This document shows, piece after piece, positions 3,401-41,756 of a stretch of DNA of 42,056 nt. The notes under the pieces were generated by a model. That model was not told where the DNA came from. It saw only the letters and a program-made list of their open reading frames with translations, and searched no databases. A program made the translations under genes and the position numbers. Positions within the stretch are counted from its first letter, which is position 1, and every line of letters starts with the position of its first letter. Source of the DNA: a virus (lineage: Duplodnaviria > Heunggongvirae > Uroviricota > Caudoviricetes); the IMG/VR virus record IMGVR_UViG_2917413769_000001, positions 1 through 42,056 of that record. One strand, written 5' to 3'.

Positions 3401-4120
3401 CTATGCGCCTGGTGTTGGAGGTTCGGAAGGAATATCTGCACTACCTGGTTCGACACCTTTAACCAAGTGCGGGTGATCAATGAGGCTGACCTCACCGGCC
3501 ACTACATCCTTCGTCACGTTCATTGGACCAATAAACGTAGCCGTGGTACTGGTCATCTGGTCAGGATCCTGCACTATTGGTCCGTTAAGGTGCAGCGTTC
3601 CCCCGCCCAAGTAAATATCCTTGGCATTGAGGTAAATGGCGTCTGCTTTCTGCGTAATTGTTCCCGGTTCCACTGTTATTGAACTGACCCCGTCGGCCGT
3701 TTTCAAAATGGCGCCATCAGGACCATATAGCACTATTTTGTTCGGATCCTCCTTCGTCCAACCCACGTTGGATAAAGGTACAAAGAACAGCGGAACCAGT
3801 GATAGCGTTAACGACCTGCTGGCAATCCCGGTCCCCAAGCCTGATACCCCTCGCAGCGAGACATCAGCAGCCACGGTCACCCCTTTATCACCTTCCTGTA
3901 TCGGGTATCTGATGTATTCAAAAGTAGCGACAGGAAGGGTTGTCTGCGGGTACTGAGTGCCATCTGGAAGCATATCGAACTGCACTGTGACGATCTGCCC
4001 ATCAACCGCAACAACATGGCAGGGTAGAGATCGACCGGATATAGCAGTCCGGTCTTCATTTGCCGTATGGATCGCGTTATTCAGAGCCTTCAGGAAAGGA
4101 AAAGTTTGTCCATTGCTCAT
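3401..4120 (-). CDS. Baseplate spike/assembly protein (gpV-like position)
   Basis: 239-aa ORF upstream of W-like gene; by gene order. Confidence 0.3.
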   Translation of the reverse strand: MSNGQTFPFLKALNNAIHTANEDRTAISGRSLPCHVVAVDGQIVTVQFDMLPDGTQYPQTTLPVATFEYIRYPIQEGDKGVTVAADVSLRGVSGLGTGIASRSLTLSLVPLFFVPLSNVGWTKEDPNKIVLYGPDGAILKTADGVSSITVEPGTITQKADAIYLNAKDIYLGGGTLHLNGPIVQDPDQMTSTTATFIGPMNVTKDVVAGEVSLIDHPHLVKGVEPGSADIPSEPPTPGA

Positions 4121-5121
4121 GTTGTATTCTTCGCCAGCGCGACGGCCTCGTAGATTGTCACCCAGGAATTGGTGTTATCAGGGTTAAGGAAATCGCCGAC
4201 ATGGCGCACTGATGTTACCAGGAATTTTCCCGAGAAATTCACTCGGTTACGCAGCGATGAGTACGAGCGTTCACTATTAACCGAAAGGAGCGCCCCTGGT
4301 CCCGAGATAATATTTTCGGGCAAAGCAACCTTCATTCCACAGAACAAATCTGAGCGAAGGGGACACTTGAACGAAACACTGAACATACCAATCCAGTTCG
4401 GCTGGTCAATCAATTCCTGGGGGAGAATTTGAACTGTGCCATCGTCGGTAGTGTTATTGTCGAAAACGCGAATGACCCGGTTTTGCATCACCATCTGCAC
4501 TCCGGTGTAATCAGCACGACTTACATAGGAGAAAGAGTGACTTCGAATTACGGCAGCAAGTTGGGTTAGTCGCGGATAAACACCAGTAGCGGGCTCTGCA
4601 AGCACCAACTGGTCATTGATGGAAATGTCAATTTTGAATCCGGGATAAGCAACTGCCAGCGCGCGGTTGAGCACATCACTTAACTTCTCCCCTTTTTTTC
4701 CATCGAGTGTAATGCTGTTCTCTTGCCCTTTGTCATTCAGCAACGGGCTGGGATTCACCACGAAATTAAGAGACTGATTAGTCCCCTGCCACACCGGAAA
4801 AGGGTTATAAATCTGCCCGCTGAGAATAAGTCCACCCTGATTGGGGTTTGCAAGTGGAAGTCCTGCAGAAAAGCCGGCGATCAAATCGACCCGGCATCCT
4901 GCCAGTTGCGTGCTCTCCCGCAGCATTGAAATTGGCACGCCAAACAGGGAAATTCTGGTACCGCTGGAAACAACGTCATACCCGGTGATTAGTGCGTCGA
5001 ACTGGATTTGTAGCGCTGACCCTGGAGACAGAGAACTGTCAAACGGGCCAATCGGATTACCTGTGTCATCCAGCGGCGTTTTGCCATTTTTGTCAGTTAG
5101 TTCGAGTCTGTAGTATTTCAT
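4117..5121 (-). CDS. Tail protein (gpD-like position)
   Basis: 334-aa ORF between tape-measure region and baseplate genes. Confidence 0.3.
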   Translation of the reverse strand: MKYYRLELTDKNGKTPLDDTGNPIGPFDSSLSPGSALQIQFDALITGYDVVSSGTRISLFGVPISMLRESTQLAGCRVDLIAGFSAGLPLANPNQGGLILSGQIYNPFPVWQGTNQSLNFVVNPSPLLNDKGQENSITLDGKKGEKLSDVLNRALAVAYPGFKIDISINDQLVLAEPATGVYPRLTQLAAVIRSHSFSYVSRADYTGVQMVMQNRVIRVFDNNTTDDGTVQILPQELIDQPNWIGMFSVSFKCPLRSDLFCGMKVALPENIISGPGALLSVNSERSYSSLRNRVNFSGKFLVTSVRHVGDFLNPDNTNSWVTIYEAVALAKNTT

Positions 5122-5387
5122 CAGGTCGCCTCGAACTGGTTCGAACTGACCCGGAAGACAAGCGACCCCGGCGCGTAAGGGAGCGCCAAGTTGATGTCAT
5201 AATCGTCAGGAGAGCCAACAAGCGGCACATACCAAACAACCTGCCCTTGCCCATCGGTGAGCCTGAGGTAATAGCGGTTTGCATACTGGTTGTATGGGAC
5301 GGTACCGAACAGTTTCGCGCCGCCGACAGTGGCCTGAAACGAGAAAGGAGTCTTCCCGTCAGGATTGAAGGGTATAGTGGTTGTCAT
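5121..5387 (-). CDS. Tail protein, small
   Basis: 88-aa ORF, start/stop coupled to neighbours in the tail operon. Confidence 0.3.
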   Translation of the reverse strand: MTTTIPFNPDGKTPFSFQATVGGAKLFGTVPYNQYANRYYLRLTDGQGQVVWYVPLVGSPDDYDINLALPYAPGSLVFRVSSNQFEAT

Positions 5388-5395
5388 GTTGAGAC

Positions 5396-6064
5396 CTAAA
5401 ATTTTGGAAAAGCAGGAATCAGATCGCCATTACTCCACCAGGATCCTGTATCCGCTGAAAAAGTTGTCGGCATTCCCGATTCGAATTTACTCATCAGGCC
5501 GCCGAGTGCCGCCTCCACCTGTGATATTGCGAGAAGCGGCTGTTCAAACTCCATTTCCCAGGTGTGTTGAACCTGCTTATTCTGCTCAGAAAATCCCGAC
5601 ACATCGACAAACGAGCGCATCAGGCAGCCGGTGTAGATATACGAGGGCGTCATCACGACGTAATAGCCGCCGCTCTGATTGTGCTTATCCAGCGCCAGTT
5701 TCAGTGCGGCGAAGGTGATCCCCTTGGTTGCGTACCCTCCATCCTTCGTGGATGCAGGTCGTAGCATCTGCATTCGCACCTGGTTCGGACGGTTGATTAC
5801 CGAGTTAGCCGCCGTCGCCATGTTGTAAAAATTGAGAGTTCCGATTTCTTGCCTGATTAGTGAAGTTCCGGCCATTGGAGTGAAGTGGGCTGTTGGTCCG
5901 GAGAGTTCACCGTGAAGCAGACCATCAACAATACTCACACCTTCGGTCAGAACCGCGATCGGCATCATGCCCCCGGGTATTTCGGAGGCAATGCCCTCAA
6001 CTAGAATTATCGGCGAAACCTCGAAGGCCAGACGGAACGCCTGACCAAAGTAATTCAATGCCAT
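5396..6064 (-). CDS. Tail structural protein
   Basis: 222-aa ORF immediately downstream of the tape-measure-like gene. Confidence 0.3.
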   Translation of the reverse strand: MALNYFGQAFRLAFEVSPIILVEGIASEIPGGMMPIAVLTEGVSIVDGLLHGELSGPTAHFTPMAGTSLIRQEIGTLNFYNMATAANSVINRPNQVRMQMLRPASTKDGGYATKGITFAALKLALDKHNQSGGYYVVMTPSYIYTGCLMRSFVDVSGFSEQNKQVQHTWEMEFEQPLLAISQVEAALGGLMSKFESGMPTTFSADTGSWWSNGDLIPAFPKF

Positions 6065-24236: not shown

Positions 24237-24844
24237 ACAAGCACCGATTTCGCCTTGTCATAGCGGGTCTGCCGATCATCGAGGCCGTTAGTGCCACCGT
24301 TGATGATTTTCGTAACAGCTTTGACATCCCCGGAGTGCTTCAGACAGCCTTTTGCGGTATAGAACCACGCCGCCGAACGGGCTGCATATTCATCCTGCTC
24401 CAAAAGCTGAGGAACCAGTAACAAATCGGCACCCAGACCAGCACCACAATCCCGGTAATTGTCGTGACCGGTAATCTGAATCAGTCCACGGCCGCGATAA
24501 TTCCATCCATCGTTTTGTCCAATATTCCCCATGCGATTTGCATAGACGATATTGGCAATGCCTTTTTGATCCGCCGGGTGATTAGCAGTACGTCCGTACT
24601 TCTGCGCGGTTTCGGTAGTGAAATATTTCCCGAATGTCGCTTTCAGGCCATCAGCAGAATAATTCAGGTTTTCAACAATACGTGTGAAACCTCCAGACTC
24701 ATGCCCCACCTGAGCGATAAACATCGCCTGATCCAGCGGTGAGATAATGCCGAATTCTTTCATCTCTGCATCGATATGCGGAAACCAGCGCGCAGCCAGT
24801 CCGGCGCTGATACCAGCCGCCATTTGAAATTGTTGTTGGTTCAT
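24233..24844 (-). CDS. Endolysin, glycoside hydrolase family 19-like
   Basis: 203 aa; motifs QVGHESGGF and [15 protein letters not shown] typical of GH19 phage lysozymes. Confidence 0.8.
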
Positions 24845-25125
24845 TAGTGCCTCAGATGATCAACAAGGCGCGCAACGTTGCCTCTGACGGCCACCAGCAC
24901 GGCAAGGAATATGATGTTGGCCCCGATAGTTGCCCACGAAGAATGAGGATAAATGCCGCAAAGATAAGCCAGGGGCACGGCACTGTAAGTCACCGCGATA
25001 AGCCATGCCAGACGCGAAATCCACGGGCGATGTCGTGAATCTCCCCGGCGGTAAAACATAATAGTAATGACCACTCCGGCGCACAGCAGCGCGTTTACCG
25101 TTGCTGACGGGTCATTTAGTACCAC
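24844..25125 (-). CDS. Lysis-associated membrane protein (holin/antiholin-like)
   Basis: 93 aa with two or three hydrophobic segments; immediately upstream of endolysin. Confidence 0.45.
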
Positions 25126-25498
25126 CTGAACCTCCCCGGCGCGTTATCAGCGCCACCAGCGAGCCGACATCCTGGTTATTCAGGAATGTCAGGATTTTAA
25201 CGGCTAAAGCAGAAACGATTACGGCACCGATGGCATCCAGCGGTTTATCACTATACCCGGTCAGGTTCGTCAGTTTGGAACCCACCAGTCCGGAACAAAG
25301 GATCCCGGCAATATACGACACAACGAAATATGCCATCCGACGCGCCGCGCTCAGATCTGACGCTGTTGCGATGTAGAATACAGCCCCTGCAAATGCGCCA
25401 AATACGACACCATAATCAGTTCCAGTAAGTAACCCATAGACACTGGCACCTGTCAGGACACCACCAGCCAGCCCTGAGCCTGAGATCGGTTCGGACAT
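25112..25498 (-). CDS. Holin-like membrane protein
   Basis: Start moved to internal ATG at 25498 preceded by GAGGGGG; Gly-rich with several TM segments; first gene of lysis cassette. Confidence 0.5.
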   Translation of the reverse strand: MSEPISGSGLAGGVLTGASVYGLLTGTDYGVVFGAFAGAVFYIATASDLSAARRMAYFVVSYIAGILCSGLVGSKLTNLTGYSDKPLDAIGAVIVSALAVKILTFLNNQDVGSLVALITRRGGSGGTK

Positions 25499-25637
25499 GT
25501 AGCCCCCTCTTAATTGCTGTGAGTCCTCCCAACGTTGAGGGGAAGAAATGCCGCGTCTGCGGCTGTTGATTTCAGGTTCACGGACTGAATTTAAACGTTG
25601 AAGCCTATCGGTGATGGTTCCCGGAACCCTAAACTGA

Positions 25638-25661
25638 AAGGGCTGCCAGCTGGCAGCCCTT
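25638..25661. other. 24-nt perfect palindrome AAGGGCTGCCAGCTGGCAGCCCTT (strong hairpin or protein-binding site)
   Basis: Exact inverted repeat in the non-coding Q-holin interval, about 140 nt upstream of the holin start. Confidence 0.4.
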
Positions 25662-25868
25662 AAACGAAGAATCTCGCTGAAACGAGACGAAATGAATTTG
25701 AGACACCCCATCCAACAAACCATTCAGGTTATCTGGATTTTTTACACAGCAATTTTGCAAAAAACCGCGCCCACTCAAACCAGAAATGCTTCCCGGTCAC
25801 TCAGGGAAACCCCATCATCGCAGACCGAAAAGCGTAAACAGGAACAGCCAGCGGGAATCGAATCCGCA

Positions 25869-25945
25869 TGGTCCGCCACCGGGGGCTCGAACCCCGTACA
25901 ATCAAATTAAAAGGCTGATGCTCTGTCCTGGTGAGCTAGTGGCGG
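25869..25945 (-). tRNA. tRNA-like element (possible phage tRNA or pseudo-tRNA; anticodon UUU if functional)
   Basis: Reverse complement folds as a cloverleaf: 7-bp acceptor CCGCCAC/GTGGCGG, D-stem GCTC/GAGC with GG loop, T-arm CGGGG-TTCGAGC-CCCCG, encoded CCA; anticodon stem weak (3 WC + 1 GU + 1 mismatch). Confidence 0.35.
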
Positions 25946-26598
25946 CTGACAGGTTTCACTAAATCGGTATGTAAAAAATTGCCAACTAATGAATAGCTGG
26001 CAATATGAACAAACAAACCGTGAAATTATCATAATAAGGAATAAGTATTGTCCCAAAATTACCTCCAGCGTTAATTAGCGTATGCCTATACTGCTCTTTC
26101 CGCAATGGAACACCCTTCACTTTCAGATTTAGTTATTGCCACTGGATGGTTTAGCGAAAATCGCTCTAAATCCTCGCCCAGTCCATGGCCGGCGGAGATA
26201 TAATACAGGTTTAACTAAGATGGCCTGCAGGATTATACAACTCAACTTTTTCCAGGCGGCCAAAAGTGCTACACACCCAGATATTTCATGGGCTTTATAA
26301 GGTAGTTACCTCTGGGTTTCATAGTTTACTCACGAATGATTTGCATGGGCAAAATTTACCCCAAATGAAAAACCACACCATATCAGGAGGTTTAATTTTC
26401 TGATCAAGTGTACGCATTCTTAATTAGAAAGCAGAAACCATCATAAAACACAAAATCCCCACGGAGTTAACCGCAGGGCTTGAATGAATTCTCTAACGAA
26501 TGAGCACAATACCCCATCATTGGAATCAGATTAGGCAATTTTATTCAAACATGCAATACTTCGTTGCCATCATGTTGTCAAAATTTACTAACAGGCAT

Positions 26599-27411
26599 CT
26601 ATCGTGTGACAGACTTCAATGCAGCATCAGCATGAGACTCTTCTACATGGCACTGGCTTACCAGAAGCTCAAACAGCGGCTTAAAGTTGCGTGACCATGT
26701 CGGTTGGCTTATTGTCATCACGCCTTCACACAACGCCTTGCGCACGCTCTCTGCCGGAAGCCTGGCATAACCACGGCCTGAGCATTTCCCGCATTCCTTC
26801 ATCACCGGCACGCCCTGAAGTTCCGTCGCCTTCTTATCCAGCACCTTCCCCTTACCATGACAACGACACGCATTGCTGATAACACCTTTGCCGTTACAGG
26901 TATTGCACATAACCCGCGCGGTTTCCCGTACCGACTTCCATTCTTCCCAGTAAGATGGATAAACCCCATTCGTGATTGCGGCCCATTTTGGTGGCTTACC
27001 GTCTGGATATTGAACCTTGTTTGTGAAGACATCAGCTTCGGTGAAGCCGCTACCAGCGCAGCAATCGCACTGCCTGACACTTGCCGCACTGCGCGTATAA
27101 TCCTGATACGCAAAAGCGCACATAATTTCGAGAACGCGTCGGCGAATTGTTTCATCGAGTTCAGTAACTGATTTACAACGTCGTGACAACTCAACTGCTG
27201 ACACATACAGTTCCTCCAATGCCCTGTCAGGGCTGCTGATTCCAATTTTTGCAAGGTACAGATCAAAGCCAAATCCACACCTGGCATTTACCAGCCCCAG
27301 CGCTGCCATTACATCTGTACCGGTCAGGTTATCGGTGGCCGTCGCCCGCGAAGAATCACTGAACATCGGGGACTTTGGAGCAAAATATTTTGCGATTGAT
27401 TCAAGGTTCAT
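26599..27411 (-). CDS. Late-gene antiterminator Q (Cys-rich lambdoid Q family)
   Basis: 270 aa with multiple CxxC motifs (CDCC, CNTCNGKG, CRCHGKG, CGKCSGRG); between nin genes and lysis cassette. Confidence 0.65.
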   Translation of the reverse strand: MNLESIAKYFAPKSPMFSDSSRATATDNLTGTDVMAALGLVNARCGFGFDLYLAKIGISSPDRALEELYVSAVELSRRCKSVTELDETIRRRVLEIMCAFAYQDYTRSAASVRQCDCCAGSGFTEADVFTNKVQYPDGKPPKWAAITNGVYPSYWEEWKSVRETARVMCNTCNGKGVISNACRCHGKGKVLDKKATELQGVPVMKECGKCSGRGYARLPAESVRKALCEGVMTISQPTWSRNFKPLFELLVSQCHVEESHADAALKSVTR

Positions 27412-40299: not shown

Positions 40300-40624
40300 A
40301 ATGGCAATTCCAGCGAAAAAGGCGGCTGAAATTCTGGATGTTTCAACCAGGACTATTTACCAGTTGATTAACTCAGGGCAGTTGGCCGGTAAGAAGATAG
40401 GCAATAAGTATCGAACAACCGCATCAGCATGCCTTGCATATTTGTATTCCCCGCAAGAAACTAAACAGGCGAACGCGGGTGATCATAAAGGAGATAATTT
40501 ATGTCAATCACCCTCAGAGGCGGTGTGTGGCACTGTCATTTCTTTACGCCGTCAGGAAAAAGAGTTAGACGCTCTCTTGGTACGGGGGACAAAAAGCAAG
40601 CGCAGGAACTGCACGACAAACTGA
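40286..40624 (+). CDS. xis: Excisionase (Xis/AlpA-type HTH)
   Basis: [31 protein letters not shown]; directly upstream of and overlapping integrase. Confidence 0.55.
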
Positions 40625-41664
40625 AGGCAGAGGCGTGGCGGGTAGATAAGATAGGGGATCTTCCGTCCAGATCTTTTGAAGAATGTTGCATCCGCTGGAT
40701 ACGGGAAAAAGAGCACAAGCGTGCTCTTGATGATGACAAAACCAAGATAGAGTTTTTTCTGCAACATTTTTCGGGCAGGGACATTTCGTCTATTACGGCG
40801 AATGATGTATACGGCGTCGTCGAAGGGATGACCAACAGAAAACATTATCAGAACTGGGTTAGCAGCAGGGACGCTGCAATCAGGAAAGGAAAGGAACCAC
40901 CGGAATACAAGCCAAAGCTGGTTAGCCAGGAGACAAGGGCACAGCATCTGTCATTTATGCGGGGTCTTTTCCGTATAGCTGAGAAGGACTGGCTCTGGAT
41001 AAAGGATGCACCTGTTATCAAGGTGAGAAAGCCAGGGAGCAAGCGTATCCGCTGGCTCACTAAAGATGAGGCCTCACGGCTAATCGAATGCGTTTCTGAT
41101 GATTTAAAGCCGGTCGTTACTTTTGCGCTGGCGACAGGACTTCGGCGCTCTAACATTATCAACCTGGAATGGCAGCAGGTCGATATGCAAAGGAAAATTG
41201 CCTGGGTAAATCCAGAGGACGCTAAAGCGGGAAAGGCTATCGGCGTAGCCCTGAATGATACCGCATGCAAAGTGCTTCGCGATCAGATTGGAAAACATTC
41301 CAGGTGGGTTTTTGTCTACACGAAAGCAAAACATCGACCTGATGGAACAATCACCCCCGCAGTCAGGAAAATGAGTCTCGGTAACCATAAAGGATGGGAT
41401 GCGGGTCTGAAGCGAGCCGGAATCGAAAATTTTCGCTTCCACGACCTGCGCCATACCTGGGCAAGCTGGCTGGTTCAGTCCGGTGTCCCGTTATCCATTT
41501 TACAGGAAATGGGTGGATGGGAATCGATTGAAATGGTCCAGAGATATGCGCACCTGGCCCCTAATCATTTAACGGAGCACGCACGGAAAATTGATCTGAT
41601 TTTTGGAAGCAGCGACACAAATACGACACAGGAAATAAGTCAGGCAGGATTGAGGATAGCGTAA
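40501..41664 (+). CDS. int: Tyrosine integrase, P22-like family
   Basis: 387 aa; catalytic-region motifs [14 protein letters not shown] and VQRYAHL; close resemblance to P22 Int as recalled; ends 16 nt from a tRNA gene. Confidence 0.9.
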
Positions 41665-41679
41665 TTCATTGATTTATAA

Positions 41680-41756
41680 TGGCGCGCCCTGCAGGATTCG
41701 AACCTGCGGCCCACGACTTAGAAGGTCGTTGCTCTATCCAACTGAGCTAAGGGCGC
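41680..41756 (-). tRNA. argU: tRNA-Arg (anticodon UCU), argU-type
   Basis: Reverse complement GCGCCCTTAGCTCAGTTGGATAGAGCAACGACCTTCTAAGTCGTGGGCCGCAGGTTCGAATCCTGCAGGGCGCGCCA: 7-bp acceptor, D-loop GG, anticodon loop CUUCUAA, T-loop TTCGAAT, encoded CCA. Confidence 0.9.

Follow-up and report, generated by a model that had tools for sequence, protein, structure and literature searches.

The Interval between the Q and Holin Genes of a Lambdoid Prophage as a Probable Late-Operon Control Region with Decayed Cargo

Organization of the Interval

The viral DNA analyzed here (IMG/VR record IMGVR_UViG_2917413769_000001, 42,056 nucleotides (nt), referred to below as the window) contains a long interval between the gene of the Q antiterminator and the holin gene. 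It is quite probable that this interval serves a lambdoid prophage as the control region of its late operon and as a site of cargo, most of which has decayed. The value of this assignment is mainly one of annotation: a seemingly empty 1.1 kb resolves into a promoter and terminator, a dead kinase gene, the scar of an insertion sequence (IS), one live and one dead transfer RNA (tRNA) gene, and further terminators. The gap is ~85% explained in this way, and ~170 base pairs (bp) are without assignment.

From the Q stop codon to the holin start codon, the gap measures exactly 1100 bp (25499-26598), matching the ~1.1 kb of the original prediction, which had been made from the sequence letters; the neighboring genes are all encoded by the minus strand. 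In the first 29 kb of the window, no other gap between minus-strand genes is as large. The stretch without open reading frames (ORFs) that follows Q was also measured in 77 relatives of this gene: its length extends from 39 to 1554 bp (median ~318 bp) and is at least 1000 bp in five of them. The gap, which had been called unusually long, belongs to the upper tail of its Q family without being unique. The description of it as AT-rich applies to the Q-proximal 653 bp (25946-26598, 39.1% GC) but not to the part from the tRNA to the holin gene (51.2%, the whole window having 50.7%).

The claim that the interval has no convincing ORF was borne out. The longest complete ORF on either strand comprises 72 amino acids (aa) and is antisense to the tRNA; in shuffled versions of the gap (n = 1000), the longest ORF had 76 +/- 20 aa and attained at least 72 aa in 50% of cases. 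None of the ten largest small ORFs gave a match below E 0.02 against Pfam and PHROGs. A non-coding RNA had also been proposed for this region, an idea that gained no support from covariance models, since the tRNA was the sole match of the Rfam cmscan search of positions 25000-27000 (both strands, E <= 1). The terminator scan detected five terminator-like sites, compared with 1.7 +/- 1.5 in shuffled sequences, and the hairpins of the gap have z-scores of -6 to -8.

Near-identical DNA was not found by megablast among phages, and the match in E. coli was limited to a 45-bp piece of the holin leader. Look-ups of the exact Q and holin proteins of the window returned only the assembly GCA_004745435.1 (contig PDIL01000010.1) and one sequencing run, in which the interval is identical.

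Predicted Late Promoter, Q-Binding Spacer and tR' Terminator

The product of the Q gene belongs to the same family as the Q protein of phage lambda. According to BLASTP, both are similar over the full length (34% identity, E 2e-45), and the best match among solved structures was the lambda Q protein (PDB 7UBM, E 2.5e-51). The Q-S interval of lambda, as read from NC_001416, was therefore aligned directly with that of the window. The window sequence TTGCAT-GTTTGAATAAAATTGCC-TAATCT-GATTCC-AATGATGGGG aligned with TTGACT-TATTGAATAAAATTGGG-TAAATT-TGACTC-AACGATGGG of lambda, and the distance of this putative pR' promoter from the Q stop codon (~78 bp) is equal in the two genomes. The 17-nt spacer between the -35 and -10 elements, which contains the candidate Q-binding element, is identical at 13 of 17 positions. 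The same arrangement of TTGCAT, GTTTGAATAAAA and TAATYT occurs in five other loci (L013, L014, L017, L018 and L022; comparison sequences carry L numbers).

The AATGATGGGG of the window occupies the place of AACGATGGG in lambda, which begins at lambda +1 (position 44587), the start of the 6S RNA. By this analogy, transcription in the window would start at 26521. In the set of 68 distinct sequences compared (66 relatives, the window and lambda), AAYGMTGGG is located 6 nt past the -10 element in 64, as part of a recurring layout consisting of the -35 element, 17 nt, the -10 element, 6 nt, AAYGMTGGG, 35-45 nt and a GC-rich hairpin with a T-run.

In the window, this last hairpin is the predicted tR' terminator (26478-26457, with the tail reaching 26445). 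In ~45 IMG/VR relatives, identity to this hairpin over 40 nt is as high as 95%. RNAalifold analysis of 22 distinct relatives found it to be the only consensus structure, with compensatory changes in five of its eight pairs. The predicted terminated transcript from pR' has a length of ~73-77 nt. Every feature by which a lambda-type late control region (pR'-qut-tR') can be recognized in sequence was found. The earlier expectation of pR', qut and tR' agrees with the predicted lambda-like promoter, Q-binding element and pause element and the conserved terminator at 26556-26445.

A short transcript from pR' to tR' is made by every lambdoid phage; apart from it, no non-coding RNA can be predicted here with confidence. 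Late regions of prophages are known to yield small RNAs (sRNAs), an example being StxS (PMC7547250). By analogy with the lambda 6S RNA and StxS, the lysogen probably produces this transcript constitutively (PMC7547250).

Compared with lambda Q, the window Q contains an insertion of 63 aa (approximately residues 122-214) with extra CxxCxGxG zinc motifs like those of the DnaJ zinc-finger domain. The lambda-like spacer is kept despite this insertion, i.e., the pR' and Q-binding arrangement of lambda is conserved with Q proteins that bear an additional zinc ribbon. In addition, examination of the first ~170 nt past the Q stop codon in loci L013-L092 showed that Q proteins 64-80% identical to that of the window are accompanied by two classes of promoter spacer. 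The first, to which the window belongs, is lambda-like (TTGAATAAAA); the second reads CGGAAWWWWC and is followed by an almost invariant initial transcript AACGCTGGGAATCCGTTCA. The two classes suggest that Q-binding specificity may switch within one protein family.

Remnant of a Kinase Cargo Gene

Downstream of tR', the interval contains the beginning of a lost Hanks-type Ser/Thr protein kinase gene. The first indication was a match of one Q relative (L065) to positions 26399-26216 of the window with 80% identity. A longer stretch of 235 bp (26448-26214) is 89% identical to two loci found as kinase homologues (L095 and L096); conservation of the proximal leader extends to L094 and L097. The remnant retains the ATG start codon at 26322. 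A 1-nt insertion near 26275 places an in-frame TAG (26271-26269) at codon 18. The tblastn search with the L065 kinase recovered MKPRGNYLIKP, followed by CSTFGRLEKVELYNPAGHLS in a shifted frame. The homology breaks off sharply at 26214, which corresponds to codon 36, and the window contains no intact reading frame with a full kinase catalytic domain. The idea of decayed cargo is upheld by this truncated fragment (26448-26214) and the IS end that follows it, as well as by a tRNA-Gly stump after the tRNA-Lys.

The intact gene is present in L065, where a kinase of 260 aa (Pkinase, E 2.4e-32) is followed by a gene for a PP2C phosphatase of 248 aa, the pair occupying the space from tR' to the gene of a P21-type holin. 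Among the PADLOC models, mad6, PD-T4-6 and Stk2 match the intact kinase (E 1e-22 to 5e-38); for this reason, the lost kinase and PP2C cargo was plausibly an anti-phage defence module. As for the rest of the kinase and the phosphatase, tblastn with the L065 proteins revealed no trace of them in the interval. The phosphatase query gave chance matches only, and a second, diverged kinase fragment (YISAGHGLGE...) just past the break was also judged a chance match (E 0.23 against nine sequences).

In total, nine lambdoid contigs from IMG/VR (L065, positions 4085-5610, and L093-L101) carry an intact kinase and PP2C pair between tR' and the holin gene. The ~80-nt leader of the kinase gene is better conserved among them than parts of its coding sequence.

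End of an IS200/IS605-Family Element

Beyond the kinase break, a low-stringency plasmid search with the remaining 268 bp yielded the only lead for this segment, a match of ~55 nt in 176 records. These matches have in common a discrete unit of 61 bp, the surroundings of which are unrelated; 489 of 5426 E. coli genomes contain it, with 1-5 copies each. In annotated copies, this unit forms the tnpA-proximal end of an IS200/IS605-like element of 1767 bp that belongs to the ISEc46 family and carries tnpA and tnpB. The remnant in the window is 77-78% identical to the terminal 53-54 nt of this IS in L118 and L119, and its terminus (...CGCTAA) is the same as that of the full-length element. Of the hallmarks of the IS200/IS605 family, the subterminal palindromic end is present, and tnpA, tnpB and the second end are absent from the interval. 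The best tblastn matches of TnpA and TnpB in the whole window (E 0.82 and 0.17) lie outside the interval and are at chance level.

It is the inner side of the IS remnant, not its terminus, that faces the kinase fragment. This juxtaposition suggests that the IS entered the cargo operon or its immediate vicinity and that a later deletion extended from kinase codon 36 into the IS, taking with it what was left of the operon and the greater part of the IS. Another explanation, which we consider rather unlikely, is that the 53 nt constitute a stand-alone mobile or functional hairpin, i.e., a PATE/MITE-like solo end, and that the kinase was truncated by an unrelated recombination. Solo ISEc46-like ends without tnpA and tnpB do occur on plasmids and on a phage contig (L116 and L117), and 10 nt of unmatched filler separate the end from the kinase homology in the window. 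On the other hand, the solo copy in L115 reaches further into the IS, which indicates that truncated IS remnants do arise, and the inner side directed toward the kinase is the outcome to be expected if an internal deletion had covered both IS and operon.

The plasmid match initially also pointed to a PrlF antitoxin remnant. This candidate was rejected: the match is the IS end, which overlaps a probably mis-called N-terminal extension of a PrlF coding sequence. In that plasmid (L115, 881-1273; Klebsiella plasmid NZ_MZ836808.1), the first ~25 codons of the PrlF-family coding sequence overlap the ISEc46-like remnant, and the true start codon is probably further downstream than annotated. A palindromic element with the same core hairpin was observed in a phage immunity region (L117, ~1300-1380; IMGVR_UViG_3300045988_051161), where a cI-like repressor ORF seems to be broken by it within the N-terminal helix-turn-helix.

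The tRNA-Lys Gene and tRNA-Gly Stump

The tRNA-like element noticed earlier proved to be real: ARAGORN called a tRNA-Lys (UUU) at 25869-25945 on the minus strand, with 48.3 bits against Rfam RF00005 (gathering score 29). Its minimum-energy fold is a cloverleaf, and the D and T loops have the conserved residues. The gene is 84% identical to the tRNA-Lys of PhiR47_1 and ~80% identical to argN of Stx phages, and is unlike E. coli lysT. Its acceptor end is C1-G72, a mismatch is present at C31-U39, and the discriminator is A73, where phage relatives have T73. The A73 discriminator and the UUU anticodon fit the identity rules of LysRS. Some host nucleases cleave tRNA-Lys at the anticodon, and a phage-type tRNA-Lys that resists them could act as a substitute.

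Directly past the CCA of the tRNA-Lys, the sequence TGCGGATTCGATTCCCGCTGGCTGTTCC aligns with the T arm and 3' acceptor strand of the tRNA-Gly(UCC) of PhiR47_1 and HK639. Compared with the Lys-Thr-Gly order of PhiR47_1, ~126 bp are gone; the loss takes in the tRNA-Thr gene as well as 45 nt from the 5' end of the tRNA-Gly gene.

Several unannotated tRNA sequences were noted in the genomes compared. In the Q-holin interval of HK639 (L011), ARAGORN detected a tRNA-Asn at 1876-1950, which is followed at ~1955-2030 by a tRNA-Gly-like sequence not called by the program. In vB_EcoS-689R5 (L114), a tRNA-Lys-like sequence (1501-1581) is located between the annotated tRNA-Met and tRNA-Thr.

Orphan Segment and Small-RNA and Small-Protein Alternatives

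The 268 bp past the kinase break gave no blastn match in E. coli genomes and none in phages at E <= 1. Two 20-mers from this segment had no match in metagenome contigs, and its concatenated six-frame translation had none at E <= 0.1 among 5.8 billion proteins. Searches of IMG/VR with two 18-mers and a degenerate hairpin pattern returned unrelated chance matches only. The part left after assignment of the IS end is read as DNA flanking the old IS insertion site, together with a cargo terminator. This terminator, t2, is a predicted hairpin 27 nt upstream of the tRNA, with a fold of -21.3 kcal/mol and z = -8.2 against shuffled sequences.

It is improbable, in our estimation, that a separate small regulatory RNA is encoded by the orphan segment (~26150-25972), such as one of ~50 nt running from near 26021 to t2. 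A promoter-like site does lie ~20 nt upstream of the strong terminator hairpin, the minus strand of 25946-26213 folds better than shuffled sequences (z = -2.76, 1 in 200) with the plus strand no better than them, and prophage late regions do yield sRNAs such as StxS (PMC7547250). Nevertheless, the promoter-like site is one of three such sites in the scan, where 2.3 are expected by chance, and the z-score comes mostly from the terminator hairpin. The segment has no Rfam match at E <= 1, and no homologue in the collections searched, hence no conservation or covariation in its support. Moreover, t2 is equally well explained as the terminator of the lost cargo or as an extra barrier to transcription without Q. 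We also see little chance that the orphan segment is an undescribed small prophage RNA or that the ~75-nt pR'-tR' transcript is an StxS-like sRNA regulating the host.

A functional small protein, whether the 17-aa peptide from the kinase start, the 32-aa ORF at 26319-26417 (minus) or the 64-aa ORF at 26500-26694 (plus), is very improbable: the kinase start codon is still there, with the sequence upstream of it, and small ORFs are present, but the longest ORF corresponds to chance expectation, no ORF has a meaningful Pfam or PHROGs match, no good ribosome-binding sites were seen, and the 32-aa ORF is owed to a 1-nt deletion relative to L095 and L096, in which the same frame ends after 20 codons (it is absent in L094 and L097).

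Proposed Course of Late Transcription and Cargo Loss

In the preferred interpretation, a late control region followed by decayed cargo, RNA polymerase would start at the lambda-like pR' and pause at the -10-like AATGAT at the transcript start. Without Q, it would halt at tR' after ~75 nt. Once made, Q would presumably bind the element between -35 and -10 and be loaded onto the paused polymerase, which, thus modified, would read through tR' and t2-t5, transcribing the tRNA-Lys, to the holin, endolysin and structural genes.

The extra length of the interval would have three sources: a kinase and PP2C operon cut down to a leader and 36 frameshifted codons that abut an IS end; a tRNA array of the Lys-Thr-Gly type cut down to the tRNA-Lys and a 28-nt tRNA-Gly stump; and ~170 bp of orphan sequence with a terminator. 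It is attributed to cargo turnover at a known hot spot. Cargo at the same position in related Q loci varies, being a DNA methylase, tRNAs or tRNA arrays, or a kinase-phosphatase pair, and the interval represents a snapshot of gene gain and loss at the cargo site that separates Q from the lysis genes. The interval reveals no new mechanism, and nothing points to a new kind of element.

A number of observations weigh against this interpretation. Promoter activity, the start site, pausing, Q action, termination and the order of decay are all deduced from sequence. The pR' hexamers are weak (each matches the consensus at three of six positions) and were missed by a simple sigma-70 scan; a consensus TTGACA at 26581-26576 is an alternative -35 element, although its -10 element, TATTGC, is poor. 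The U-tracts of t3, t4 and t5 are poor as well, and termination there may fail. The sequence of IS insertion and later deletion is based on juxtaposition alone, and the 10-nt filler (26213-26204) lies between the kinase and IS homologies. Finally, ~170 bp (26150-25979) have no homologue in any collection searched and no positive explanation, and the folding of the 268 nt at 25946-26213 above shuffled sequences on the minus strand (z = -2.76; plus strand, z = -0.42) leaves some room for an RNA element.

Flanking Genes, Shared Spacer and Holin Leader

The genes RusA, YbcO and YlcG are located upstream of Q, and the two holin genes are followed by those for a GH19-type endolysin and an Rz-like DUF2514 protein. 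In data with one genome per species, the closest Q genes (77-86% identity) belong to Pseudocitrobacter, Citrobacter and Enterobacter. An enterobacterial-type Q gene 85% identical to that of the window was also found on a 667-bp contig (L005, NZ_JBHSON010000282.1) of an Actinomadura rugatobispora assembly, where it is most likely a contamination. At the edge of the window, an ORF of 387 aa (40501-41664, plus) ends beside a tRNA-Arg(TCT) gene (41680-41756, minus); this region is possibly a putative integrase with the prophage attachment site. The coordinates of all features in and around the interval are presented in Table 1.

Table 1. Features of the Q-to-holin interval and the adjacent genes, listed in order of position.
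Feature	Positions	Strand	Basis and details
Second holin gene	24844-25125	minus	PF05449
Holin gene	25112-25498	minus	PF16931 Phage_holin_8, E 2.7e-34
Holin ribosome-binding site AAGAGGGGG and start codon	25496-25511	minus	direct reading; ATG 25498-25496
t5, GC hairpin GCCGCAGACGCGGC, then ATTTCTTCCCCTC	25550-25563	minus	terminator scan
t4, 24-nt perfect palindrome AAGGGCTGCCAGCTGGCAGCCCTT	25638-25661		self-match; as RNA, 10-bp hairpin with a short U-containing tail
Conserved spacer, ending in t3	25667-25840	minus	80-82% identity to HK639, 76% to PhiR47_1
t3, terminator-like hairpin	25671-25688	minus	7-bp stem, tail TTCTTCGTTT
tRNA-Gly(UCC) 3' stump, 28 nt (T arm and 3' acceptor strand)	25841-25868	minus	PhiR47_1 and HK639 alignment
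tRNA-Lys (anticodon UUU), encoded CCA, phage-type scaffold	25869-25945	minus	ARAGORN
t2, intrinsic terminator (predicted)	25972-26004	minus	11-bp stem ATTGCCAGCTA/TAGTTGGCAAT, then T6; terminator scan
Orphan non-coding DNA	26005-26150		no homologue; weak promoter-like site
Promoter-like TTGGGA-17-TATGAT	26056-26028	minus	scan score 9/12
Terminal 53 nt of an IS200/IS605-family (ISEc46-like) IS, tnpA-proximal subterminal palindrome	26151-26203	minus	solo remnant
Pseudogene, codons 1-36 of Hanks-type Ser/Thr protein kinase	26214-26322	minus	tblastn with L065 kinase
5' leader of lost kinase cargo gene (moron)	26323-26448	minus	L095/L096 homology
tR', intrinsic terminator (predicted)	26445-26478	minus	8-bp GC-rich stem CCCTGCGG/CCGTGGGG, tail ATTTTGTGTTTT; terminator scan
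-10-like sigma-dependent pause element AATGAT, then GGG (putative)	26516-26521	minus	position of lambda AACGATGGG
pR' late promoter (predicted)	26528-26556	minus	-35 TTGCAT 26556-26551; spacer GTTTGAATAAAATTGCC; -10 TAATCT 26533-26528
17-nt spacer GTTTGAATAAAATTGCC, like Q-binding element	26550-26534	minus	lambda alignment
Q antiterminator gene, Q-lambda family	26599-27411	minus	PF03589 Antiterm, E 2e-42

The hairpins t3-t5 lie in the holin-proximal part of the interval. The position of t3 is that of an annotated terminator of HK639, of which the window copy is a weaker version. The 24-nt palindrome of the original prediction was located and corresponds to t4; the region containing t3 and t4 (25630-25700) has a fold of -27.7 kcal/mol with z = -6.1. 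Within the spacer shared with HK639 and PhiR47_1, a conserved block at 25740-25840 (minus) contains two invariant motifs, namely, TCTGCGATGATGGG, similar to the pause element AATGATGGGG of pR', and TTTTTGCAAAATTGCTGTG.

A hairpin with a T-run followed by TTCCCCTCA occurs at the same place upstream of the same type of holin in L001, L026, L092 and HK639, and is an annotated terminator in the latter. The holin ribosome-binding site and start codon are conserved in these four sequences and in L020. In the holin leader (25496-25545, minus), the conserved TTCCCCTCA is located ~30 nt upstream of the ribosome-binding site AGAGGGGG, as it is in L001, L020, L026, L092 and HK639. Since the two motifs are complementary, their pairing could mask the ribosome-binding site of the holin gene; in the minimum-energy fold of the leader, CCCCTC is paired instead with the nearer GGGAGG.

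Comparison with Known Systems

A short terminated transcript of ~75 nt from a constitutive late promoter, as predicted in the window, is a feature of StxS and the lambda 6S RNA. The StxS sequence shows no similarity to the window transcript, and the Q protein of Stx phages presumably belongs to a different family than that of the window.

As for the kinase, the 260-aa Hanks-type protein of the relatives resembles PD-T4-6, mad6 and Stk2 in that it matches these models and is prophage cargo. Unlike them, the window gene is dead, with 36 codons and a frameshift, and the intact kinase of the relatives is paired with PP2C. PD-T4-6 has been described as a single-gene system of which PP2C is no part. 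With ISEc46 (tnpA and tnpB), the window shares the last 53 nt with the subterminal palindrome and the exact terminus (...CGCTAA), whereas tnpA, tnpB and the second end are lacking in the remnant.

The tRNA arrays past Q, namely, ileZ-argN-argO in Stx2 phages and Met-Lys-Thr-Gly in PhiR47_1, occupy the same slot between tR' and the cargo or lysis genes and have a homologous scaffold, with the identities to argN and the PhiR47_1 tRNA-Lys given above. The window differs from them in keeping one tRNA and a 28-nt stump, in the discriminator (A, not T) and in the C31-U39 mismatch.

The Escherichia phage HK639 differs from the window in its Q protein, which is shorter and of another kind, in having no kinase or IS remnant, and in carrying a tRNA-Asn and a near-complete uncalled tRNA-Gly in place of the tRNA-Lys and stump. 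Its Q-holin interval of ~950 bp is nevertheless similar in having four annotated terminators at positions matching those of the window, 80-82% identical spacer DNA downstream of the tRNA-Gly sequence, and the same lysis cassette (PF16931-type holin, second holin and GH19-type endolysin).

Finally, the late region of lambda (Q-pR'-qut-6S RNA-tR'-S) differs from that of the window in the distance of tR' from the start (194 nt, compared with ~75 nt), in the length of the interval (676 bp, compared with 1100 bp), in containing neither a tRNA gene nor cargo remnants, and in its Q protein, to which that of the window adds 63 aa with extra zinc motifs. Both regions have a Q protein of the same family, a promoter, Q-binding spacer and pause element that are nearly superimposable, and a downstream terminator, with the lysis genes next.

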